Source: Candidatus Bathyarchaeota archaeon (GTDB lineage Archaea; Thermoproteota; Bathyarchaeia; Bathyarchaeales; Bathycorpusculaceae). Taken from it: a stretch of DNA of 64,000 nt. A model generated the notes under the pieces. That model worked only from the letters and a program-made list of their open reading frames with translations, made no database searches and was not told the DNA's origin. Within the stretch, counting starts at the first letter, position 1; each line of letters opens with the position of its first letter. Below are positions 419-11,691 of this stretch, piece by piece. The DNA is taken from positions 96,001-160,000 of the forward strand of contig CAWDYC010000003.1 of assembly GCA_963806535.1 (NCBI GenBank), in the 5' to 3' direction. The translations under genes and the position numbers were made by a program.

Positions 419-1294
419 CTAGTTTTCGGTTGCTTCTAGCATTTTGTACATAGCTTCATATGATTTAGCGAAGTCGGGATCAACTTCTGTCAATTTTGCT
501 TTTAATTCCGCCATCCGCTCTATTATTCCTTCAGCGTCTTTGTTTCTTATTAGGTTGAGCCATTCCTGGGCTTTTGCCATGAATTGATCTTCGATTTTTT
601 TCAGCTTAGGCAGATTCATTTGTAAGCTTGCGTATAGGTCTGGTGTTTCCAATGCAGTTGCTTCAGCAAGTGTAAAGAGCATTCGATAGGTAGTGCCTGC
701 GACCTCTTTTGTTTCCGAGAAATCTTTCTGTTCTAGAAGCGTTTCACAAGCAATCAACCCAAGAAAATGGGGCAATCCCAAAACAACAGACATTAGCTCG
801 TCATGTTTCTTTGGAGTCATTACAAAAACATGGGCTTCCTCTTGCTGCAACCACTTTTTGAATTCTTGTGCAAACTTTTCTTCCGCAGGATTTGTTGGAG
901 TCAGAATGTAGGCTTTGTGTTTGACACCGTTGCTTCCTGGTCCGAAAACAGGATGTGTTCCTAAAACTAAGGCACCCTTGATATTTTCATGCATCAGTTT
1001 TAGTGGCGTTTCCTTAATTGAGCAGATATCCATGACGACTTGGCCTTTGTGAAGTGCTGAAGCGATGGTTTTAACTACTTCTTCCATGGCGCTGATTGAT
1101 ACGCATATTAAGACTTGGTCAGCGTCAATAACGGCTTCTTTAAAGTCTGTAGTTGTCTTAACAGAAAGTTCTTTTTCTAAATTTGCAATTTTTTCTTTTT
1201 TTCTATCGGCTACTGTCACGTCGTAGCCTTTTGATTGGAAAAATTTAGCAAACCATATACCCATTTTTCCTGCGCCAATTACGGCGATTTTCAT
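419..1294 (-). CDS. tyrA: Prephenate/arogenate dehydrogenase
   Basis: GAGKMG Rossmann motif, DICSIK, HPVFGP, HDELMS; last gene of the aro operon. Confidence 0.93.
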   Translation of the reverse strand: MKIAVIGAGKMGIWFAKFFQSKGYDVTVADRKKEKIANLEKELSVKTTTDFKEAVIDADQVLICVSISAMEEVVKTIASALHKGQVVMDICSIKETPLKLMHENIKGALVLGTHPVFGPGSNGVKHKAYILTPTNPAEEKFAQEFKKWLQQEEAHVFVMTPKKHDELMSVVLGLPHFLGLIACETLLEQKDFSETKEVAGTTYRMLFTLAEATALETPDLYASLQMNLPKLKKIEDQFMAKAQEWLNLIRNKDAEGIIERMAELKAKLTEVDPDFAKSYEAMYKMLEATEN

Positions 1295-2370
1295 TTCAAA
1301 GCCTCGCCTATTATTTCGAGACCAGTTTTGATTTCGTCTCTGGGCGCAGTTAATGATATACGGAAATGCTCTCTATAGTCGCCAAACGAAGTACCTGGAG
1401 CAATTGCGACACCTTTGTCTAGCAATTCTAAGGTGAACTTTTCAGAGTCTAGACCAGATTGTTTAGGAAAAACATAAAATGGCGCCTCAGGCTTTGTGAA
1501 TGAGAAGCCTGATTTAGCCAAAGTTTTACTTGCCAACTTAGCCCGTTGTTCATATTCTTCTTTTATTTTTGTTGCAAGTTGTTTTTGAAGTTCCAACGCT
1601 TTCATAGCAGCTTCCTGAATGAAAACCGGTACGTTGTTGATGGTTATTTGGTTAAGTTTAGTGATGTTGTCGACTAGTTTTTTGTTCGCGATTATGTAGC
1701 CGATTCTCCATCCAGTCATGCTAAATGTTTTGGAGAAGCCAGTGGTTAGAATATGTTTTTGTTCGCCGTCATATTCTAAGATGCTTTTGGTTTTAACGAA
1801 GCTGATAGTTCCATAAACCTCATCTGAAAGGATTGTGACGCCTTTTTTGTTCGCTATTTCCACTATTCCGTCAAGGGTTTCAGGATCTATAACTTTGCTT
1901 GTTGGATTATTTGGGTTGTTAAGTATTATCATTCTAGTATTCTTGTCAATAGTCTCTTCCAGTTTGTCAAGATCAACTTTCCAGCCGTCTTCCATTTCTG
2001 TCCTAAGCAGTTTAGTCTCTGCTCCTAGGCTTTTAGCGATTAAATCGTAAGCTGTCCAGTAAGGAGTAGGGATGATTACGTTTCCTCCGCCCTTCATTAG
2101 GAGATACATAGTGGCGAAAACACCCCATTTTGAGCCAGGGGTAATAACAACGTTTTCAGCTTTAACACCGTGAAGTTCAGCAAGCTCTTGTCGAAGTTTA
2201 CTCTCCCCATAAGAAGAGGAATACTTTGTTTTGCCCGCCTTCATTGAAGCATAGGCTGCCTCAATTATTTCGTTAGGCGTAGCTAAGTCTGGGTCACCTA
2301 GGTTTAAACGTATAATCTTCTTTCCTTGGTTTTCGAGCCTTATGGCTTTCTCATTTATCTCGTAAAGCAC
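1291..2370 (-). CDS. PLP-dependent class I/II aminotransferase (probable aromatic aminotransferase)
   Basis: NNPNNPT, SDEVY, SKTFSMTGWRIG motifs; operon context. Confidence 0.9.
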   Translation of the reverse strand: MLYEINEKAIRLENQGKKIIRLNLGDPDLATPNEIIEAAYASMKAGKTKYSSSYGESKLRQELAELHGVKAENVVITPGSKWGVFATMYLLMKGGGNVIIPTPYWTAYDLIAKSLGAETKLLRTEMEDGWKVDLDKLEETIDKNTRMIILNNPNNPTSKVIDPETLDGIVEIANKKGVTILSDEVYGTISFVKTKSILEYDGEQKHILTTGFSKTFSMTGWRIGYIIANKKLVDNITKLNQITINNVPVFIQEAAMKALELQKQLATKIKEEYEQRAKLASKTLAKSGFSFTKPEAPFYVFPKQSGLDSEKFTLELLDKGVAIAPGTSFGDYREHFRISLTAPRDEIKTGLEIIGEALK

Positions 2371-2398
2371 AGAGGATTACTTCCGCTGAAAGTTCTTT

Positions 2399-2659
2399 TT
2401 ACTCCTGAATAGCACTGCACATATTAACTATTTCGTGGTAAACTGCTTCAACTTGCAAGGGATCAAGGCGAAATTCGACCGCTTTTTCCTTCACTCGTTT
2501 AAAGACCTCATTTTCTCTGGTAACATCCCTTATGGGGAAGCTTTTCTTTTTCTTAATCAAACCAATCGCCGAGCATGTTTTTGCTCTTTCGCATAGGGCA
2601 GCTATGATTTGTTCGTCAATTTCGTCAACTCTTTTTCTTAATTGTTGAATTTCATCCAT
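2399..2659 (-). CDS. aroQ: Chorismate mutase (AroQ type)
   Basis: LRKRVDEIDEQI...IRDVTRE pattern; follows aroC. Confidence 0.88.
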   Translation of the reverse strand: MDEIQQLRKRVDEIDEQIIAALCERAKTCSAIGLIKKKKSFPIRDVTRENEVFKRVKEKAVEFRLDPLQVEAVYHEIVNMCSAIQE

Positions 2660-3768
2660 TATTTCTGTCTCTCCAGAATTCTCGGTATGAAGCCTGCTCG
2701 AATCATATGGTCAGCCAAAGTTACCGCGACCGCAGCTTCCACAGCTGGCACAGCTTTTGGAACTACACATGGGTCATGCCTGCCTTTGACGCTCAGATTA
2801 GCATTTTTCATTGTTGATAGGTTAACGCTTTTCTGCTCTTTGCCAAGTGAAGGGGTCGGTTTAATTGCTATACGTATCAAAATAGGCATACCATTTGATA
2901 TCCCGCCTAAGATTCCACCCATGTTTTCCGTTGAAGTAGCAACTTTTCCGCTTTGCAAGATGTATGCATCGTTACTCTCAGAGCCCTTTAATTCGGCAAT
3001 CTCAAAACCTAACCCGAATTCAACTGCTTTTACCGCGGGAACGTTAAACAATGCTTTCGCCAAATCAGCGTCAAGCGAATCAAACAGTGGTTCACCAACA
3101 CCTACGGGAACATTTAGCGCCATGCATTCAACCACTCCGCCTACACTTTCGCCCTCTTTTCTAGCCTCCACTATGGCTTGCTCCATTTTTTCTGAGCAGG
3201 TTAAGTTGGGACACCGTGTAGATGTTGAGTATCTATTCTTACGGATTTCTTCTGCACTAAACTTTTTGTCAGATGTTACGTTACCAACCGCTGTGGTGTA
3301 AGCTAACACGTCAACTTCAAATCGACTAAGAAGTTTTTTGGCGATAGATCCAGCCATGATAAGTGCTACTGTTACTCTGCCCGAGAAACGTCCGCCTCCT
3401 CTATAATCCTGGAAGCCACCATATTTTATCCGGGCTGTGTAATCAGCGTGTCCCGGTCTTGGCAAATCCTTAATTGCCTCGTAATCGCTGGAGTCAACCT
3501 CCCGATTCTCAACCGTCACAGTAATTGGGGCGCCAGTTGTAAAACCGTTAAAAACTCCTGAAAGAACTTTGGCAGTATCTTTCTCGATTCTTGGTGAAAC
3601 AATTCTCGGCTCAGAGGGAATACGTCTATCTAAGTCCATTTGAATGTCAGCTTCAGAAAGAGGTAATCCCGCCGGGCAGCCATCGACAACTACACCAACG
3701 ATTTTGCCGTGGCTTTCGCCGAAAGTGGTTACTGTGAATTCTTTACCTATCGAATTTCCCGCCAACAA
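2659..3768 (-). CDS. aroC: Chorismate synthase
   Basis: FGESHG, RPGHAD, RFSGR, GRHDPC motifs. Confidence 0.97.
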   Translation of the reverse strand: MLAGNSIGKEFTVTTFGESHGKIVGVVVDGCPAGLPLSEADIQMDLDRRIPSEPRIVSPRIEKDTAKVLSGVFNGFTTGAPITVTVENREVDSSDYEAIKDLPRPGHADYTARIKYGGFQDYRGGGRFSGRVTVALIMAGSIAKKLLSRFEVDVLAYTTAVGNVTSDKKFSAEEIRKNRYSTSTRCPNLTCSEKMEQAIVEARKEGESVGGVVECMALNVPVGVGEPLFDSLDADLAKALFNVPAVKAVEFGLGFEIAELKGSESNDAYILQSGKVATSTENMGGILGGISNGMPILIRIAIKPTPSLGKEQKSVNLSTMKNANLSVKGRHDPCVVPKAVPAVEAAVAVTLADHMIRAGFIPRILERQK

Positions 3769-5047
3769 TTTCAGCTCCTATTTGTTTTAGATGAGTGAAG
3801 AACAGCGGATAAGACTTTCTAACGCATTGTGCGTTTTGAATTGTTGTTTGGTTTTTTGCACCTAAAGCTGCAACTGCACAAGCCATTGCTATACGGTGGT
3901 CATTGTGCGGATTAATCACCGCACCATGTAGATTACATGGACCTTCAATGGTTAAAGTGTCAGAGTCTACATTTATTTTTGCACCCATCTTTTTGAATTC
4001 AAGATAAAGTGTTTTTAGTCTGTCCGACTCTTTGAGTTTGAGCCGTCGGGCGCCCGTGATTTTGGAAGTTCCTTTTGCATAGCATGCAAGCGCTGTACAG
4101 ACTGGAACGAGGTCAGGAATATTTTTTGCATCAACATTGACGGGCTCAAGCGAATTGCCTGTTCCAGTTATTTCAACGCTGTTCTCGCATACTTTTCCAT
4201 TAATACCCATTTGCTTAAGGATACCCAGAATCGCTTTATCGCCTTGGGGGCTGCAGTATTCAAGATTTTTAATTTGAACGGTTGAATTGGTTATGGCTGT
4301 GGCAGCCAGGAGAAAGGCTGCAGAAGAAAAATCACCGGGCACATTAAAGTCATAGGGCTTATATGTTTGGTTAGCTGGAATGTGTATAAGTTTATAGTTG
4401 TCGTAAACTTCTATTCTGATTTCATGTTTGGCAAGCACGTCCCACGTCATTTTGACGTAGTCTGCAGATTCAAGGGGCGATTTTAATGTGATTTCTGTGT
4501 CTACTTTCGCTATTGGACAAGCAAACATTAATCCTGAAATAAACTGTGAACTAACATCTCCGGGAATAGAGGTTTCGCCTCCAAGGATACCGCCGCCCTC
4601 AACAAATACAGCATTTTTATTGCCGAGTTTTTTAATGCGAACGCTAACACCGAGATCATTGAGACTTCTAATTAAAGGTTCAATGGGTCTGCGTTCAAGT
4701 GAACTGCCAAAAACCAAAGTTGAAGGGTCAGGCGCTAGGGCAGCTACTGGTATCATGAAACGCAAGGTAGCACCTGATTCACCGCAGTCGATAGGTTCTT
4801 TGGCATTCGTGACTGGGTTTGCACCTGTAACCGTCCAGCATTCTTCAGCTATTACTACATTTGCGCCTAAAGCTGTAATGGCCCTCAGGGTTGCTTGGGT
4901 GTCATCGGATAGAAGAGGGTTTGAGATCTTAGAAATTCCATTGGATAGAGCAGCAGCTATGAGCATTCTCTGGGTATAAGATTTTGATGGAGGGGCACAA
5001 ACTTCGCCGCTTAACTTTTCAGTTTTCTTGATGATTACATCAGTCAT
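3743..5047 (-). CDS. aroA: EPSP synthase (3-phosphoshikimate 1-carboxyvinyltransferase)
   Basis: PPSKS, GESGATLR, SSQFISG, KESDR, DHRIAM. Confidence 0.97.
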   Translation of the reverse strand: MTDVIIKKTEKLSGEVCAPPSKSYTQRMLIAAALSNGISKISNPLLSDDTQATLRAITALGANVVIAEECWTVTGANPVTNAKEPIDCGESGATLRFMIPVAALAPDPSTLVFGSSLERRPIEPLIRSLNDLGVSVRIKKLGNKNAVFVEGGGILGGETSIPGDVSSQFISGLMFACPIAKVDTEITLKSPLESADYVKMTWDVLAKHEIRIEVYDNYKLIHIPANQTYKPYDFNVPGDFSSAAFLLAATAITNSTVQIKNLEYCSPQGDKAILGILKQMGINGKVCENSVEITGTGNSLEPVNVDAKNIPDLVPVCTALACYAKGTSKITGARRLKLKESDRLKTLYLEFKKMGAKINVDSDTLTIEGPCNLHGAVINPHNDHRIAMACAVAALGAKNQTTIQNAQCVRKSYPLFFTHLKQIGAEIVGGKFDR

Positions 5048-5049
5048 TA

Positions 5050-5922
5050 TCAGAGCACCTTGGCTTTCTCACTGTTCAAATGGGTTTTCAAGATTTCGCC
5101 GCCGTATTTTCGCAACGCCGCTATAACTAAATCAACCTTGTCATTAGGAGTTACCGCTGTTACTGCTGGTCCTTTGCCGCATAATCCAGCTGCTATTGCT
5201 CCAGCAGCCAAAGCATCTACAGCTATAGTAGGATTATATCCCGAAGCTGAGGAATAAATCAAACCGTTAAGCGTCAATGCCCCCCAAACATTGCCCTTCA
5301 AAGCCTCATTGTAAGCGACTTCAACGAGCGGTTTAATTGTTTGCAGCCGCTTGACATTGGAATCTGCTGTGTAAGATTTTTCGGACGGTACGTGGAACAA
5401 AACTATTAAATCTTCATCAAATGGTAACTTCTTAACTATTTTTCGATTCAAATTGTCAGTAATTATTGTTCCACCGAAATATGAAGCACAAGCGTCATCA
5501 AAAGCTCCTGTCACAGTCACTTTTGAGTCAAAAGCAGCATCAATGCCCAAATTTACGACATCAAAATCAGGAAGCGTTTTGCCTAATGCCGCAATCGATG
5601 CGAGAGCTACTGCGTTTGCCGCTACACTACTGCTTTTGAGCCCTTTGGCAATTGGAATGTTCGACCAAGTTTTTATTTTTGCGCCAAAACTTTTTTCTAA
5701 ACTGAACTTTTGAAGGACTCTGCACACCGTTTTTTCTATCAGAACAGTGCTTTCTTTTGGGTCCGAAGTTATTTCCGCTTTGAAAACATATGGTTCATAC
5801 GTTAATTCGACTTCAGCCTTAGTCCATAAATCAACACCAAAAGCTGCACCTTTACCAAGCGCAATTGCATTGACAATTGTTGCAGCGCCATGAGCTATTG
5901 CAGTAACTTTACCAGTCAACAT
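5050..5922 (-). CDS. aroK: Archaeal GHMP-family shikimate kinase
   Basis: GAATIVNAI, IPIAKGLKSSS, TGAFDDA. Confidence 0.93.
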   Translation of the reverse strand: MLTGKVTAIAHGAATIVNAIALGKGAAFGVDLWTKAEVELTYEPYVFKAEITSDPKESTVLIEKTVCRVLQKFSLEKSFGAKIKTWSNIPIAKGLKSSSVAANAVALASIAALGKTLPDFDVVNLGIDAAFDSKVTVTGAFDDACASYFGGTIITDNLNRKIVKKLPFDEDLIVLFHVPSEKSYTADSNVKRLQTIKPLVEVAYNEALKGNVWGALTLNGLIYSSASGYNPTIAVDALAAGAIAAGLCGKGPAVTAVTPNDKVDLVIAALRKYGGEILKTHLNSEKAKVL

Positions 5923-6780
5923 TTACACCTTTAACAAGTGATTAAGCGCCGCCTTCCTCATAACTTCAACTGGCGCCTTGCAAGCAGTCCAGATTTCGAA
6001 TGATGCAGCCCCTTGATAAATTAGCATTTCAACCCCACTCACCACTTTAGCGCCTGCCGCTTTAGCATCCTTGACCAACTTGGTTTCAATTGGATTGTAA
6101 ACTATGTCCATTACAGCCAAATCAGGTTTCAACCATTCTAGTGATATGGGGGTTTGGTCCGCGTTCGGTTCCATTCCTATCGAAGTAGCATTAATGAGTA
6201 CATCTGCTCCGGCAAGATTGACTTTGATCGTTTTTGGGGTAAGTGCACCCGCGCTGATTTTTTTGTTAAATTTTAGTTTTAGGAGATTTGTAAGCTCTGT
6301 CACTGGTTTAAGTGTTCGATTCAAAATTACCAGTTCATCGGCTTCTTGCGATAAAGTGTATGCTATGGCTTTTGCAGCGCCACCTGCACCGAGCAACAAT
6401 ATTTTTTTGCCCTTCACCGCAACGCCATTCTGCTCAAGCGCATTTAATGCCCCGACACCATCAGTGTTAAAACCGAAAAGTCTCCCATCTGTGTTTAAAA
6501 TGGTATTAGCAGAAGCTATGGTTTTAGCAGTTGGGTCCAATTCATCCAAGTATTTGATGACCTCGTTTTTATGTGGCATCGTTACGTTTAACCCTCGAAT
6601 GCCTAAAGCTCGCATAGCGCTTATCGCATTTTTAACCTCAGTGGCTTTTACTTTGAACGCTAAGAAAACGTAATCAATTTGTAATGCACGAAACGCTGCA
6701 TTATGAATAATTGGGCTAAGAGTGTGTTCTATAGGGTCACCGATTACACCACACACTTTTGTTTTGCCCGAAATAACCAT
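5923..6780 (-). CDS. aroE: Shikimate dehydrogenase
   Basis: GDPIEHTLSP, NVTMPHK, NTDGVG, GAGGAA. Confidence 0.96.
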   Translation of the reverse strand: MVISGKTKVCGVIGDPIEHTLSPIIHNAAFRALQIDYVFLAFKVKATEVKNAISAMRALGIRGLNVTMPHKNEVIKYLDELDPTAKTIASANTILNTDGRLFGFNTDGVGALNALEQNGVAVKGKKILLLGAGGAAKAIAYTLSQEADELVILNRTLKPVTELTNLLKLKFNKKISAGALTPKTIKVNLAGADVLINATSIGMEPNADQTPISLEWLKPDLAVMDIVYNPIETKLVKDAKAAGAKVVSGVEMLIYQGAASFEIWTACKAPVEVMRKAALNHLLKV

Positions 6781-6782
6781 TT

Positions 6783-7466
6783 TTATTTTGCTCCTAAGAG
6801 GTCGTATGCAACTCTCATATCTCGGATGCTTATTTGTCCCGACGCGGTTTCGTTGCTTTGATCTAGTGAAGCAAAAGTAAAGAAGGCGCCAAACATAGGC
6901 GAGAGAAGTCTAGAAACCTTACCGTCTTTGCCCATGCAGAAACAGACAATTTTCACCCTGCGGGGTATTGCGGAAATGAAGTTTAGCACCGTCAAGTTGT
7001 CTTCAATTTTTTCAGCTGTTGTTGCTATCTTGCAGATAGCAGCTCCGCTGGAAATTTCCTGTTTTAGAATGTTGCCCATTTCAGAACTGCTTAATGTGCC
7101 ATCAAACTTGTGGAAGGAAACGATTGGTTTAGCGCCCAGTTGCTTGAGTTTGTTAATTGTTTCTTTATATTTTGGACTTGACATATCGACGTCAATATAT
7201 TCGAAGCCGTTTTTGACTGCGTTTAGCAGCGTTTGTTGACGCTCGGTTTCTGTTCCGGAGAAACTGCCTTTTTCGCTTTGTAGCTTGTTTGTGGCAATGA
7301 GTGGGATTCTTGTGGTTTTTGAGATTTCGGATAGGTTTCTGGAGGTTTCAAGGCAGTCTAGCCTTACCTCAATGAAGTCAGCTTTGGCTTTCTCCGCCCG
7401 CTCAATTAGATTTACAGCTTCGTCATTACTTTTTGGGAGAATCGAGACACAGATTCTCGGGATCAC
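6783..7466 (-). CDS. aroD: Type I 3-dehydroquinate dehydratase
   Basis: EVRLD, SFHKF, CKIA, MGKDGKVSRL, GQI. Confidence 0.93.
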   Translation of the reverse strand: MIPRICVSILPKSNDEAVNLIERAEKAKADFIEVRLDCLETSRNLSEISKTTRIPLIATNKLQSEKGSFSGTETERQQTLLNAVKNGFEYIDVDMSSPKYKETINKLKQLGAKPIVSFHKFDGTLSSSEMGNILKQEISSGAAICKIATTAEKIEDNLTVLNFISAIPRRVKIVCFCMGKDGKVSRLLSPMFGAFFTFASLDQSNETASGQISIRDMRVAYDLLGAK

Positions 7467-8506
7467 TTTTCTATCACCGTTTCTTCAGGCACTGATACGC
7501 CGAAGTGTCGGCCTCCTTTTGCAGATAAGTGCACGAGAACTTCATCGTTTGGTTTTAGCTCTGTAACAGGTTTTGAAGCTTGCGGAGTAACTAATCTTAT
7601 GGTTTCGGCGTTTTGAAGTATGGTTTTTATTTTTGTACCTTCGGCTTCGGCTTCAATGAGGATTAGGGGGCGGAACTCTATTTTGGATCTGCCAACATTT
7701 GTTATTCTGACTTTTCCTTCTCTGTTGATAATTAAAACTTCGTCACCCGCTTTTAATTCTGAAAGGTAACGGGTGCTTTGCAGCGATGTTAATGTGTAGT
7801 GTGAGGCAGGTCCAGCGTTTACTCGGAAAGGTCTGGATTGCACATAAGGGTTTTCGTTTACTTCAGCTTCGACAAGGAAGAAGCCAGCAGATTGACAGCC
7901 GACAAGCATTCCTTCTCCAGGAACCATCAAATCAACAGTATCAACGCAGACTCTAGCACCTGTTCCGATCGGTTTTATGGATAAAATTTTGCCCGTAATC
8001 AGAGGCACCTTCGGCATCTGCCCCTTAACAACTTTAACGGTTTTGGCAAGCTCATCTGGATTTGAAGTTTTAAGCAAAACGCCGTCTGTTCCCAATTCCA
8101 AGGCTTCAAGAACTACCTTAGCATCCTCAGCCGTTGTTACTTCGGCAACCAGTTTGCTCTTGCCGCCGTGAGCTTTAGCAATTAAGTTTTCGAGCGGAAT
8201 TACTCGCCAATCGAGACAGTTAATAATTATATAGTCAATCCCAAGCTCGGCAGCCTTAGCTGCATTATTCTCGTCTTCTTTGCCGTTTATGTTGATTCTT
8301 ATGGCGGTTTTTTTGCCCTCATTTTTTAGTTGGACAATTTTTTTCTCATTTATGCCGTGAAGAAATGTTACGTTTAATTTGCCAGAGCGGTTACTTGCTT
8401 GTTCACCTTCAAGAACTACGTCAGCATTTTCATGGGCAAGACTAAGCAAACTTTCATGTTCTTGCGGTGAAGCCGCTTCGTCTATTTGTACCCAGAGTTC
8501 CTTCAA
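7463..8506 (-). CDS. aroB': 3-dehydroquinate synthase II (archaeal AroB')
   Basis: DWRVIPLENLIA, RVCVDT, RPFRVNAG, LQNAETIRL. Confidence 0.95.
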   Translation of the reverse strand: MKELWVQIDEAASPQEHESLLSLAHENADVVLEGEQASNRSGKLNVTFLHGINEKKIVQLKNEGKKTAIRININGKEDENNAAKAAELGIDYIIINCLDWRVIPLENLIAKAHGGKSKLVAEVTTAEDAKVVLEALELGTDGVLLKTSNPDELAKTVKVVKGQMPKVPLITGKILSIKPIGTGARVCVDTVDLMVPGEGMLVGCQSAGFFLVEAEVNENPYVQSRPFRVNAGPASHYTLTSLQSTRYLSELKAGDEVLIINREGKVRITNVGRSKIEFRPLILIEAEAEGTKIKTILQNAETIRLVTPQASKPVTELKPNDEVLVHLSAKGGRHFGVSVPEETVIEK

Positions 8507-9294
8507 GCTTTTTCACCGAGAATTTTAAGCGCTTGTTCCACGCTAACTCCATCATGAACGATCGCTGACAGCGCTTTAACTATCAATGTTGGATTGTCAT
8601 GTTGAAACACATTTCTTCCAATTGAGAGCCCCGAAGCACCTGCATCAATTGCGTCATGTGTGGTCTGGAGAACTTCTTGAGATGTTTTACATTTTGGCCC
8701 TCCAGCAATAACTACTGGAACAGGACAGCTTTCAATAACTGTTTTAAACGTATTAACGTTACCAGTGAAGTTTGCCTTAATAATGTCTGCACCTAGTTCT
8801 GCGCCGATTCGGGCCGCGTGGGCAACCACATCAGCGGCATGTTCATTTTGAATTTTGGGTCCACGCGGATACATCATCGCGAGCAGCGGCACACCAAATA
8901 AGTCACATTCTTCAGCTACTTTGCCAAGAGTGCTCAACATTTTGTCCTCATCCTGCGCTCCAACGTTAACGTGTACAGAAACTGCATCTGCACCTAGACG
9001 TATGGCTTCTTGAACACTGCATACTTGGACTTTGCCATTTATGTTTGGGCTAAGATTTGACATACCTGACAACATTACTATTAATCCGGCGTTTCCCACG
9101 TTAACATGTTTAGCGATACCTTTGTGAATTAGCACAGCGTCAGCCCCGCCTTTGAGTAGATGGTTGATTATTTGCTGCATGTTAGCTAATCCTTGAATTG
9201 GACCAACTGTTACACCATGATCCATAGGTATGATTACCGTGCGGTTGTCCGATTGCAAAATTCTCTTTAATCGTCTCGTTTTTCCCTGATTCAT
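8503..9294 (-). CDS. aroA': 2-amino-3,7-dideoxy-D-threo-hept-6-ulosonate synthase (AroA', DhnA-type aldolase)
   Basis: PMDHG, MMYPRG, GADIIK, IAGG, GRNVFQ; adjacent to DHQ synthase II. Confidence 0.93.
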   Translation of the reverse strand: MNQGKTRRLKRILQSDNRTVIIPMDHGVTVGPIQGLANMQQIINHLLKGGADAVLIHKGIAKHVNVGNAGLIVMLSGMSNLSPNINGKVQVCSVQEAIRLGADAVSVHVNVGAQDEDKMLSTLGKVAEECDLFGVPLLAMMYPRGPKIQNEHAADVVAHAARIGAELGADIIKANFTGNVNTFKTVIESCPVPVVIAGGPKCKTSQEVLQTTHDAIDAGASGLSIGRNVFQHDNPTLIVKALSAIVHDGVSVEQALKILGEKA

Positions 9295-9309: not shown

Positions 9310-10557
9310 TTATTTGGCGCTCCTTAATGAGTTTTTTATTAACTTCAAAGCCTTTTCCCGTTCATTCCAATCTACAAACAGCAAAATGCTGGATGTGATG
9401 GTTAATATGCCTGAAATATTTATGCCGCTGATTCTTAGGTCTTCGCTGATTTTTCCAATAATGCCATGGGTTGCTTCCAAGCCGACACCACTTGTTTTTA
9501 TGAAGACCAAGTCTTTTTTGACTGCCATAGCAATTGTTTCGTTATTGCTCTTTGTTATGTCATGAATGTTGTTGAAGAACATATCTAAGTTTTTCTCTTG
9601 AGAAACATAAAGGATAATTGAATTTGTAGACATAGACATGCCAAGCAAGAGTGAATGTTGCTTAGTTTCTTCAACCATTTCCTGAACGATTTGCGGATTG
9701 GCTGAGATTCCGTTTCCTATTACTGTTATTTCAGCGACTGGAAAAGAATTAGCAATTTCTGCATCTAATTCTGTTGCTAATGCGCCTGTAATTATTGTAC
9801 CCTCTTCGGTAAGATTGCCGTGTGCATGGTTGATTACTCGGATGTTGATGTTTTTGGGTTTGTACTTCAAGGCTTTGCTATGGATAAATTTAGCGCCTGA
9901 ATCAGCGAGGCCCACTAAGGTGTTAACGTCAATTTCTTTGAGGCGTTCGGGGTTGGAGACGATTTTTGGGTCACCTGACATTATGCCGTCTGCATCCGTT
10001 ACTAACACGATTTCGTCAGCGCCCAATGCTTCAGCTAGAACAAACGCCGTTGTATCGCTTCCGCCTCTTCCAAGCGTGGTAATTTTGCCATCTTTAGTTT
10101 TACCAAGAAAGCCAGCAACCACAGGTATAACACTCCTCTGCATTACCGGCAATACACATTCACGAATGTTCTTTTCACAATCTTTCAAGATTGGATTCGC
10201 ATTTTGGAATGCTGAATCAGTTATTATTGGCCAGTTGCTATCGATTGGATCAAAATAGCAAGATTCTGCCCCATTAGTCTTTAAAGCTGTTGAGAATATC
10301 CGAATGCTGGTTCGTTCACCCATTGATAAGATATCATCTAAATCTTTTTTCTCCAATTTACCTTTTGAAGCGTTTTTAGCAGTGGTCATGAGAACATCGG
10401 TTGTTTTGCCCATCGCTGAAACAACAACGGCAACACGTGTGCCTTTTTTGGCTTCATTCATAACGGCATCTACCGCTTTTAAGAGTCTATCGTGATCGGC
10501 TAAGCTAGAACCACCAAATTTAACAATAATTGTTTTACAAATGCCAGTCCTTTTCAT
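9310..10557 (-). CDS. lysC: Aspartate kinase
   Basis: VKFGGSS, VVSAMG, TTLGRGGSD; C-terminal ACT-like region. Confidence 0.92.
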   Translation of the reverse strand: MKRTGICKTIIVKFGGSSLADHDRLLKAVDAVMNEAKKGTRVAVVVSAMGKTTDVLMTTAKNASKGKLEKKDLDDILSMGERTSIRIFSTALKTNGAESCYFDPIDSNWPIITDSAFQNANPILKDCEKNIRECVLPVMQRSVIPVVAGFLGKTKDGKITTLGRGGSDTTAFVLAEALGADEIVLVTDADGIMSGDPKIVSNPERLKEIDVNTLVGLADSGAKFIHSKALKYKPKNINIRVINHAHGNLTEEGTIITGALATELDAEIANSFPVAEITVIGNGISANPQIVQEMVEETKQHSLLLGMSMSTNSIILYVSQEKNLDMFFNNIHDITKSNNETIAMAVKKDLVFIKTSGVGLEATHGIIGKISEDLRISGINISGILTITSSILLFVDWNEREKALKLIKNSLRSAK

Positions 10558-10576
10558 ATTGATACACCCATGCTTT

Positions 10577-10623
10577 GCCCAGAACTTTTCTTAAAGAACT
10601 TTTCAGTTCTGGGCTTAAGAAAA
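10577..10623 (-). promoter_or_regulatory. Alternative RNA hairpins downstream of the leader ORF (putative attenuator)
   Basis: Transcript UUUUCUUAA-GCCC-AGAACU-GAAA-AGUUCU-UUAAGAAAA-GUUCUGGGC supports two mutually exclusive stems. Confidence 0.65.
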
Positions 10624-10698
10624 ATAACGATAAAAGTAGTAGTCGAAGCTAAGTAATTGTGCTGCGTTGCTTTCTTTGTTTAGTATGAAATTGGACAT
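10615..10698 (-). CDS. Putative Phe/Tyr-rich leader peptide, 27 aa (MSNFILNKESNAAQLLSFDYYFYRYFS)
   Basis: Translated by hand. ATG at 10698, TAA at 10617-10615; 7 of the last 10 sense codons are Tyr/Phe; directly upstream of the aro operon. Confidence 0.8.
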   Translation of the reverse strand: MSNFILNKESNAAQLLSFDYYFYRYFS

Positions 10699-10737
10699 TG
10701 GAGCTTCGAATCCTTGCTGATTGAGACGTTATCCAGA

Positions 10738-10753
10738 AAATATAAGCATTTCG
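10738..10753 (-). promoter_or_regulatory. Candidate BRE/TATA promoter for leader plus aro operon
   Basis: Minus strand CGAAATGC-TTATAT-TT; TATA-like box ends about 41 nt upstream of the leader ATG. Confidence 0.5.
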
Positions 10754-10768
10754 GATTTAGACTACAGT

Positions 10769-11691
10769 TGTTCTATCTAGAAATTCGGTAACACTTTCTC
10801 TATATGTTGGAGAGAGTGCGAGGATTTGGAGCGGGATTGGGAGAAGCTTAGAAAATGGATTATTAGACGGCGGTTAGAAGGCACAGCTGTTTGCTCGATA
10901 TGTACTCAAGCGAAGATAAGCCGGAAAGTATTCTATTTTTGGTGGAACCGATATCAAGCAGAAGGGTGGGGTGGTCTTCAGGAGAAACAGAAAGGCCGTC
11001 CATGTGGACCAAAACTTGACGAGACCTTAAGGAAAAAAGTTGTAAAGTTAAGGGAACGATACGAGTGGGGTCCAAACAAAATAGCGGGACATCTTTGCCA
11101 TTTAGGCTTCACCATTGACCATAACCAAGCTTACCATATCATCTGTGAAGCAGGTTTGAATCGTCCCATAATCGAGCCCAGAAAGACATGGGGAACAAAA
11201 CGTTTCCAACGAGAACATAACAACAGTCTTTGGCAAGCAGACTTCAAGCTCTGTAATGATGATTGGTGGATGATAAGTTACCAGGATGATCATTCAAGAT
11301 TCATCACTGGATCAATTAAAATTTGGAGCCCTACCGGTGAGAATGCTATGTTGCTGCTGGACAGAGCTGTTAAACGGTATGGAACTCCAAAGCAGATTCT
11401 GACGGATCAGGGAACTCAGTTTAAACCTGCAAGGGGAGAAGTATCAGCATTTGACATTCGCTGTAATGAACTTGGAATTGAGCATATCACTGCAAGTGTT
11501 CGCAGGCCTACTACCTGTGGCAAAATTGAAGCTTTCCATAAAGCGTACGAGCTGGAATCTCATCTCTTCAAGGAGCATTGGAGTTTCATACGCTACTACA
11601 ACTATACAAGGCCACACGAAGGAATAAACGATTTAACGCCAGCAGAAATATACCTCAAAGACCAAGTGTTACCCATTTTCTAGATAGAACA
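10769..11691 (+). mobile_element. IS481-like insertion sequence, 923 bp
   Basis: TGT...ACA ends; 28-bp terminal inverted repeats (26/28 match); flanking 15-bp direct repeat GATTTAGACTACAGT at 10754-10768 and 11692-11706. Confidence 0.93.
10826..11683 (+). CDS. DDE transposase (HTH plus integrase core, IS481-like)
   Basis: WQADF, DDHSR, TDQGTQF, GKIEAFH, YNYTRPH; stop codon lies inside the right inverted repeat. Confidence 0.93.
   Translation: MERDWEKLRKWIIRRRLEGTAVCSICTQAKISRKVFYFWWNRYQAEGWGGLQEKQKGRPCGPKLDETLRKKVVKLRERYEWGPNKIAGHLCHLGFTIDHNQAYHIICEAGLNRPIIEPRKTWGTKRFQREHNNSLWQADFKLCNDDWWMISYQDDHSRFITGSIKIWSPTGENAMLLLDRAVKRYGTPKQILTDQGTQFKPARGEVSAFDIRCNELGIEHITASVRRPTTCGKIEAFHKAYELESHLFKEHWSFIRYYNYTRPHEGINDLTPAEIYLKDQVLPIF

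Follow-up and report, generated by a model that had tools for sequence, protein, structure and literature searches.

Layout of the leader and the aromatic amino acid operon

We analysed a 64,000-nt stretch of DNA from a Candidatus Bathyarchaeota archaeon (the window; coordinates given here are positions in it unless a locus elsewhere is named), in which an operon for aromatic amino acid synthesis is preceded by a short open reading frame (ORF) rich in tyrosine (Tyr) and phenylalanine (Phe) codons and by an RNA hairpin that begins directly after the stop codon of this ORF. The leader, its hairpins and the operon all lie on the minus strand. An earlier note on this DNA had drawn two mutually exclusive hairpins across the leader stop codon, Fold A and Fold B, and had proposed that the position of the ribosome selects between them; its transcript sequence and coordinates match exactly when the minus strand is read. 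From 5′ to 3′, the end of the leader with its stop codon (UUUUCUUAA, 10623-10615, the TAA at 10617-10615) is followed by GCCC (10614-10611), AGAACU (10610-10605), GAAA (10604-10601), a second AGUUCU that lies in the loop of Fold B and makes Fold A possible (10600-10595), UUAAGAAAA (10594-10586) and GUUCUGGGC (10585-10577). A further 19 nt separate GUUCUGGGC from the AUG of the first operon gene, an aspartate kinase (10557-10555). Within these 19 nt, a Shine-Dalgarno (SD)-like GGGUG at 10565..10569 is positioned 7 nt past the hairpin and 7 nt before the AUG. Two of its positions, G161 and G164 in the numbering of the first sequence, are nearly invariant in the alignment of relatives, and we infer that GGGUG serves as the SD of the kinase gene.

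The leader ORF (10615..10698) encodes a peptide of 27 codons plus TAA, MSNFILNKESNAAQLLSFDYYFYRYFS. Its C terminus reads SFDYYFYRYFS, with seven Tyr or Phe residues among the last 11 sense codons. The putative regulatory codon block, F-D-Y-Y-F-Y-R-Y-F (10621..10647, seven of nine codons Tyr or Phe), ends with the last aromatic codon two codons before the stop. Approximately 40-55 nt upstream of the leader ATG lies an archaeal-type promoter (10737..10754), composed of CCGAAA (10754-10749) and GCTTATATTTT (10747-10737), which we take to be a transcription factor B recognition element (BRE)-like and a TATA-like element, respectively, following the archaeal consensus. The motif CCGAAAYGCTTATATTTT or a one-base variant of it was found ~45 nt before the leader AUG in 23 relatives of the genus with upstream DNA; a further locus, L018, ends short of it at a contig end. 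Just upstream of the leader promoter, a divergent ORF on the plus strand (10826-11683) encodes a 285-aa transposase/integrase with rve core and helix-turn-helix domains, and the promoter motif beside it is intact and the same as in the relatives.

The aspartate kinase gene (9310..10557, 415 codons) matches PF00696 with an E value of 3.7e-45. The remaining genes of the operon, assigned from Pfam matches and the ORF layout, occupy 419..9294 and encode a DeoC-family aldolase (ADH synthase type), 3-dehydroquinate synthase II, dehydroquinase I, shikimate dehydrogenase, a GHMP-type kinase, EPSP synthase, chorismate synthase, an aminotransferase and prephenate dehydrogenase. The kinase, aldolase and dehydroquinate synthase II trio constitutes the archaeal entry into the shikimate pathway, and by its Pfam content the operon makes chorismate and the enzymes of the tyrosine branch. 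The aromatic ORF thus stands upstream of an aromatic amino acid operon, and it is therefore read here as a Tyr/Phe-rich leader. Since the genes from the kinase through prephenate dehydrogenase share one strand and are tightly spaced, they would be carried on a single transcript. The packing is interrupted once, by a gap of ~290 nt at 2371-2658 between the chorismate synthase and aminotransferase genes.

A conserved hairpin adjoining the leader stop codon

Fold B is, as drawn in the earlier note, a perfect 10-bp stem that pairs 10614-10605 with 10586-10577; we refer to it as P2. Its 5′ arm (GCCCAGAACU, 10605..10614) begins 0 nt after the stop codon, its 18-nt loop (GAAAAGUUCUUUAAGAAA) spans 10587..10604, and its 3′ arm (AGUUCUGGGC) lies at 10577..10586. 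The calculated energy of Fold B is -17.7 kcal/mol. For a 73-nt stretch the predicted structure was Fold B (z = -2.63), and only one of 200 shuffled sequences was equally good. In a 93-nt context the pair probability of Fold B was 0.78 and that of Fold A 0.22, and in a longer context Fold B rose to 0.97. The absence of oligo-U after either fold also held up: AAAGCAU adjoins the stem of Fold B, and relatives of the genus read (A/G)AA(A/G)CA(U/C) directly 3′ of it. The combination of a G+C-rich hairpin with a U-tract that marks an intrinsic terminator is not found here, while some other families carry U4-6 after the stem. A search with the hairpin pattern returned this single occurrence in the 2.95-Mb genome and no match to the control pattern written backwards, and we discarded the idea of a repeated element because the pattern is single-copy. 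Rfam gave no match at E values up to 10 for 10400-10900 on either strand.

To follow the leader through related genomes, we used orthologous kinase loci of 24 congeneric species and of a few other families together with a further 59 loci from public records of Candidatus Bathyarchaeota/Bathyarchaeia, Bathy-6 and Bathycorpusculum genomes included. An aromatic-tailed leader ORF of 22-30 codons was present in 83 of the 89 loci examined, amounting to 72 distinct sequences. The six misses comprise L028-L030, which are kinase paralogs with 35-45% identity, L090, a bacterial match, L079, which is cut by a contig end, and L067, in which the leader is present and the hairpin is masked by a run of N. 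In the relatives the N-terminal half of the peptide is variable, in contrast to the conserved tail SF(D/E/G)Y(Y/G)FYY...; across relatives and other families, conservation of the peptide is limited to its aromatic richness. For the covariation analysis we aligned 69 distinct sequences, excluding L026 and L027 as too divergent and L018 for its short upstream DNA.

Fold B was 97.0% paired in this alignment. Three of its ten pairs showed changes on both sides, namely A-U to C-G, C-G to A-U or G-C, and U-A to A-U or C-G. Run unprompted on the 69 sequences, RNAalifold predicted exactly two helices, P2 and a second one that we call P1, and their joint covariation score was reached by none of 500 shuffles, with slid controls only 23-49% paired. 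When sequences were folded individually, the probability of Fold B was 1.00 for 62 of the 69 relatives and 0.91-0.99 for four; of the three with values under 0.9, one (L045, E_B +2.4, P_B 0.00) reflects an alignment slip rather than biology. The loop varies in length between 10 and 22 nt (median 18), and its best-conserved part is a U-run with three nearly invariant T columns, which reaches at least five U in 50 of the 69 relatives and at least four in 63. Among the nine inner pairs of P2, one-sided changes yielded G-U or U-G wobbles in 25 cells and unpaired bases in only six. Because the changes are of the wobble type and the loop length varies, P2 behaves as a helix of the sense-strand RNA and not as a DNA operator. 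Altogether, we conclude that Fold B is, as far as comparative sequence analysis can tell, a deeply conserved RNA stem.

These data also bear on the possibility that the inverted repeat is an operator for a dimeric repressor. A perfect 10-bp palindrome near the start of a gene is what such a protein would bind, but the spacing of the half-sites varies over 10-22 nt, the G-U and U-G changes of the sense strand would be mismatched on the other strand, both arms change together, and other families keep a hairpin without any sequence similarity. In addition, the loop is unlike the TATA element of the lineage. We therefore regard an operator as extremely improbable. An internal promoter in the A/T-rich loop was likewise rejected, as the lineage TATA element GCTTATAT is absent from the loops and several relatives have no A/T-box-like run.

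The second predicted helix, P1, pairs UCGAAGC in the 5′ untranslated region (UTR) just before the leader ATG (10703..10709) with GCUUCGA (10643..10649), which falls in the Ser-Phe-Asp codons at the start of the aromatic block. Its seven pairs are kept in 97-100% of the sequences, and the changes are mostly sense-strand wobbles (UG in 8 cells; GU in 8, 2 and 1), with four unpaired cells. A ribosome stalled early in the aromatic block would hold P1 open, and closure of P1 after the ribosome has passed would limit further initiation on the leader. RNAalifold on 14 sequences of another family, f7, recovered the hairpin after the stop codon and no P1-like helix, in an alignment whose MAFFT register was poor. 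In that family (L098-L111) a CUGGG(C/U)C motif in the 5′ UTR, situated ~5-12 nt upstream of the leader ATG, is the complement of (G)GCCCAG in the 5′ arm of the hairpin, and the leader codons contain UUUAGCU, the sequence of the inner 3′ arm. By analogy, these complementarities may represent alternative pairings like the classical 1:2 helix. A pseudoknot in our leader, formed by the U-rich leader end with the A-run of the loop or by the loop U-run with the A-rich start region, was dropped because the complementarity, judged by eye, is inconsistent across relatives.

We then examined Fold A, which exists as drawn and shares AGAACU with Fold B, so that the two are indeed mutually exclusive. As drawn, Fold A has an energy of -11.8 kcal/mol, 5.9 kcal/mol weaker than Fold B, and its inner tetraloop hairpin alone contributes -5.7 kcal/mol; an extended form with extra leader pairs reaches -17.8 kcal/mol in naked RNA. 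The AGUUCU duplication on which Fold A depends rests on a single base, the C at 10596, which interrupts the U-run of the loop (UUCUUU). The closest relative, L002, whose aspartate kinase is 94% identical, has GAAAAGUUUUUUAAGAAA at this place and differs in the loop by this one base, UUUUUU versus UUCUUU; a metatranscriptome contig of a relative also has U at position 10596. Across the alignment, Fold A was 73.4% paired versus 72.7% for a control slid by one position. Its both-side changes and pair types did not exceed those of shuffled alignments (reached by 486 and 395 of 500, respectively), and its covariation score was matched by 43 of 500. The C-G pair of its inner hairpin is found in 9 of the 69 sequences and the G-C pair provided by the duplicated AGUUCU in this sequence alone (GU 64, GC 1), the other sequences showing G-U because their loop carries the U-run. 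RNAalifold did not predict Fold A from the 69 sequences. The pair of exclusive terminator and antiterminator hairpins (2:3 versus 3:4) expected of an attenuator was not found either, P1 and P2 alone being predicted. As judged from the sequences, Fold A owes its existence to a chance T-to-C change of one loop base, and it is very probably incidental to the function of the leader.

Masking the leader codons stepwise, as the earlier note had suggested as a check, showed Fold B or no fold, and did not reproduce the proposed choice between A and B. With every mask that ended between 24 and 0 nt before the end of the stop codon, Fold B formed with a probability of at least 0.96. A mask reaching 3 nt beyond the stop left a trimmed Fold B (probability 0.75), and masks reaching 6-15 nt beyond it left neither fold, the best structures having energies of only -1.4 to -3.1 kcal/mol. 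The hairpin thus forms as long as the mask ends at or before the stop codon and is lost once at least 6 nt beyond it are covered. Masking any of the last eight leader codons reduced Fold A to at most 4%, and it therefore competes in ribosome-free RNA only, and weakly. The second check, covariation across homologous leaders, also went against it: there were no compensatory changes for Fold A, and those present favour Fold B. As one fold dominates and no compensation for Fold A exists, the two-fold switch fails on the terms that the earlier note had itself set.

A switch between two exclusive hairpins by ribosome position, with the duplicated GAAAAGUUCU as its hinge, is in our view very improbable. 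In its favour, both folds are present and exclusive in this sequence, the extended Fold A accounts for 22% of the naked-RNA ensemble at -17.8 kcal/mol, and 73% of Fold A cells pair in the alignment, where U-rich leader ends are loosely complementary to A-rich parts of the loop. Against it, Fold A is weaker, sensitive to masking and unconserved, and a ribosome placed at the stop codon abolishes it along with Fold B. What was borne out is the broader claim of a leader RNA with a ribosome-sensitive hairpin adjoining the leader stop; the ORF and the stem are conserved together. This Tyr/Phe leader module, with hairpin and P1 and a class-wide distribution, is the more interesting finding.

Recurrence of the module across Bathyarchaeia

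To assess how widely the module is distributed, we surveyed 201 genomes of the class, including our own, 68 of which contain an aro-linked kinase at E ≤ 1e-90, and inspected the upstream DNA of 51 further loci. The leader and hairpin were present in all 15 further loci of the same family. Among 36 loci of other families or genera, 24 showed an aromatic-tailed short ORF followed by a hairpin, four of them weakly (f15, f17), and 12 had no leader (seven of family f26, four of family f35 and one cut by a contig end). The module therefore occurs in at least 12 families, f5 and f7 included, and the stems of different families share no sequence, as exemplified by GCUUCGAGGCC, GGAGAAACCG, GCCGCGACCG and GGGGAAGGGGAGGG. 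In families f26 and f35 (L140-L142, L144-L147, L149, L153, L164, L165) a frame of ~450-500 aa lies upstream of the kinase in place of an aromatic leader, and could be an N-terminal fusion or a different upstream gene.

The geometry of the module was measured on 35 representatives from ~14 families. The aromatic codon nearest the stop precedes it by 1-4 codons. In all 35 representatives the hairpin starts 0-5 nt past the stop codon, mostly at 0 nt; the hairpins are 29-58 nt long, with energies of -9 to -30 kcal/mol. An SD-like motif was found in 33 of the 35, in every case 2-13 nt past the stem. That the structure outlasts the turnover of its sequence, and that stop codon and stem stay in fixed contact, is our strongest evidence that leader translation and hairpin work together, and we are fairly confident that the leader and hairpin form a real module that senses the ribosome. 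At five loci, L148, L150, L175 (f14), L025 and L161, the hairpin is followed by U5-6 and then GGAGG, an arrangement that resembles a bacterial hairpin-plus-U terminator adjoining the SD.

The same geometry weighs on the alternative that the hairpin is constitutive, acting as a 5′ stabiliser, processing site or insulator, and that the aromatic ORF encodes a small protein or acts independently of the hairpin. This reading would explain why the hairpin is predicted to form in nearly every state and why folding of the masked leader did not reveal an OFF structure. However, a stop codon within 0-5 nt of the stem in 35 of 35 representatives, despite unrelated stems, is hard to explain without an interaction between ribosome and stem, the leader peptide keeps aromatic richness only, and the module is found only before the aro-linked kinase (the exact pattern once in the genome, and no other in a crude scan). 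A constitutive hairpin is thus improbable.

Possible mechanism and output of the leader

Taking the data together, we consider it reasonably probable that the element is a ribosome-sensed Tyr/Phe leader-peptide attenuator that alternates between hairpin and no hairpin. When Tyr- or Phe-tRNA is scarce, the ribosome would stall in the aromatic block, leave the 5′ arm free or almost so and allow P2 to form, whereas a ribosome that reaches the stop codon would cover the 5′ arm and block P2. A ribosome at a stop codon covers ~12 nt downstream, which here corresponds to the entire 5′ arm; as the stem begins 0 nt from the stop codon, a terminating ribosome must therefore cover this arm. In a biosynthetic operon starvation must mean ON, and the hairpin should therefore be the ON state, an assignment towards which we lean only narrowly. 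By the same logic we ruled out the hairpin as a terminator, since starved cells would then shut the operon down and well-supplied cells would express it. Termination-reinitiation or shunting across the base of the hairpin fits the geometry and was also rejected, since it gives the wrong sign of regulation.

If the single hairpin must be the ON state, the OFF signal must need unpaired RNA. When the hairpin is absent, three segments would remain unpaired behind the polymerase, namely the U-run of the loop, the 3′ arm and the U-rich Tyr/Phe codons, and the exposed RNA may lead to archaeal oligo-U termination or to termination dependent on FttA/aCPSF1 before a ribosome loads on the kinase gene. 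The genome encodes a full-length FttA/aCPSF1 ortholog (TIGR03675, 902 bits, above the curated cut-off) in an open frame of 671 aa. A second beta-CASP/aCPSF-like match (C9:105752-107065, L120) scored 260 bits, below the cut-off, and contains three internal TAA codons. Passages of You et al. (2024, PMC11616081) describe how FttA threads the RNA from the exit channel, with a terminator that spans -1 to -36 and preferences for U at -23 and for U-rich RNA at -30 to -36; according to passages of Li et al. (2021, PMC8716108), the KH domains of FttA bind U-tracts. Applying the geometry from these passages of PMC11616081, with the polymerase near the kinase AUG, the loop U-run would be ~30-36 nt behind it and the 3′ arm ~23 nt behind, and with the polymerase at the loop U-run, the U-rich Tyr/Phe codons would be 23-36 nt behind. 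The loop U-run and 3′ arm are single-stranded only when the 5′ arm is covered, and by closing, the hairpin would keep the required 36 nt of unpaired RNA from the factor until the kinase SD is occupied by a ribosome.

For RNA evidence we turned to a wetland metatranscriptome (word share 0.04), mapped at 85% likeness. The contigs all derive from relatives, with none of 20 at 95% identity or more, and differences in depth between bins and uncovered parts were uninformative. One contig of a relative, 259 nt in length and corresponding to 10400-10658, runs unbroken from the kinase gene through the SD and the hairpin into the leader ORF, and read-through RNA that joins leader and kinase probably exists.

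An alternative is that the output is translational, i.e., that the hairpin and the aromatic codons control access to the ribosome-binding site (RBS) of the kinase and that any effect on transcription is secondary, in the manner of ermC, cat or the mycobacterial cysteine upstream ORFs (uORFs). The proximity of hairpin and SD in all 33 representatives with such a motif speaks for this output. We also calculated SD accessibility for 32 representatives of ~14 families and obtained 0.50 for the stalled state versus 0.33 for a ribosome at the stop codon, with a drop of more than 0.15 in 15 of the 32 and a rise of more than 0.15 in four. The freed 3′ part outdoes shuffled sequences in binding the SD in several families (in 9 of 32, at most 4 of 30 shuffles were as low), but the margin over shuffled parts is small overall, 0.33 versus 0.39, and lower in 20 of 32. 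Within our own family, moreover, RBS accessibility was 0.54 stalled versus 0.53 at the stop codon (90 sequences; rough means, as start codons were mis-picked in several, e.g., L061, L077, L080, L097 and L105), and for the leader studied here the SD changed in the wrong direction, from 0.40 to 0.57.

The aromatic codons are the main pairing partner of the kinase RBS in naked RNA (mean 0.26, versus 0.03-0.04 with the UTR or the N-terminal codons), an arrangement that resembles the mycobacterial design as portrayed in passages of 10.1101/834739. This pairing appears to be compositional, as permuted codon orders gave 0.31 versus 0.26 for the real one, and 82% of the RBS windows of 250 other genes pair at least as much with this leader. 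A hairpin-clamped outer helix joining the aromatic codons to the kinase RBS was accordingly set aside as a compositional possibility, being no better than permuted codons or other RBSs. On these models translational control is plausible in some families and is not supported for this genus, and as a general account of the module we think it unlikely. For this genus we tentatively propose termination rather than translation as the output, at less than even confidence, and assign the remaining weight to mixed or other outputs.

Several observations weigh against the attenuator and against the proposed output. Taken over its full 181 nt, the leader shows no exceptional stability (z = -0.28, equalled by 72 of 200 shuffles), and the relatives share ancestry, so that counts of sequences are not counts of independent events. 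The objection of wrong sign to a terminator hairpin is an argument and not a measurement. The freed 3′ arm found no partner, with best structures of -1.4 to -3.1 kcal/mol when the 5′ arm was masked, so that the OFF state is a matter of logical argument. The U-run of the loop is interrupted (UUCUUU) in this very sequence, and most other families have a U-rich stretch 3′ of the hairpin, beyond what the hairpin could hide. As RNA evidence there is one assembled contig, which comes from a relative and, like any contig, does not show transcript ends; its library may have included DNA. A crude scan of our own genome for short ORFs followed by hairpins gave no comparable leader elsewhere (a wider first scan was too noisy for use), and no Trp-rich leader precedes trpE in this genome, so there is no sign of a general attenuation regime in it. 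The gene for anthranilate synthase component I (chorismate-binding; C4, L118) is itself present as two ORFs, 858-1463 and 1657-2313, and may represent a frameshift, a split gene or an assembly error.

Set beside the bacterial attenuators, i.e., the trp and his leaders and the Phe-rich pheL-pheA leader of E. coli, the module shares a short ORF enriched in codons for the end products of the downstream pathway and placed between the promoter and the first biosynthetic gene. In both, stalling at the control codons keeps the following RNA segment clear of the ribosome, and the stop codon is placed so that a terminating ribosome masks that segment, here the 5′ arm, while a stalled one does not (a statement that assumes the customary footprint size). 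Both also have a helix, here P1, that is able to shut the ribosome-binding region of the leader itself, and a similar self-shut-off of leader initiation is familiar from the trp leader. In contrast to them, the present module is archaeal and has one hairpin after the ORF, no 3:4 terminator and, in this genus, no U-tail. By analogy, it looks like a bacterial-style attenuator built for an archaeon.

For the favoured model, in which unpaired RNA is the OFF signal, the closer analogues are the tna operon (TnaC) and other Rho-dependent attenuators, where the position of the ribosome at the leader stop likewise gates the access of a termination factor to naked RNA. The factor here would be the FttA/aCPSF1 nuclease with its preference for U-rich RNA, and the proposed signal differs from that of TnaC in being stalling at sense codons upon starvation rather than ligand-induced arrest at the stop codon. 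FttA is likened to Rho in a passage of PMC11616081. According to passages of 10.1101/834739, the mycobacterial polycysteine uORFs share with our leader a 3′ end rich in codons of the regulated amino acid and the lack of a terminator/antiterminator pair, regulation being thought to act through RNA structure beside the downstream SD. In that account, the mycobacterial Cys codons pair specifically with the SD region, whereas here permuted codons pair with the RBS as well as the real aromatic ones do; SD access is moreover predicted to be unchanged in this genus.

Full-text searches, which covered open papers only, so that an earlier report may exist, found no leader-peptide or ribosome-mediated attenuation in archaea. 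The string 'attenuat' is absent from a 2026 review of termination signals (PMC13675443) and from a 2021 review of archaeal coupling (PMC8116511). It is possible, although we advance it with reserve, that the module represents the first ribosome-mediated transcription attenuator of Archaea, distributed class-wide, with an antiterminator hairpin adjoining the stop codon and unpaired U-rich RNA as the terminator. In such an attenuator, the U-rich RNA would be read by FttA/aCPSF1 or by the polymerase itself, and the hairpin would hide or insulate it upon stalling at Tyr or Phe codons.

With the same geometry and unrelated stems in at least 12 families, the module offers a natural series of variants for the study of communication between the ribosome and the polymerase, or between the ribosome and the downstream RBS, and at ~150 nt it is small enough for transfer into a genetically tractable archaeon. 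It also flags an unannotated small ORF and an RNA element for the annotation of Bathyarchaeia genomes. For the organisms themselves, it provides a sequence-level hint that uncultured Bathyarchaeia tune the synthesis of aromatic amino acids to the supply of Tyr and Phe.

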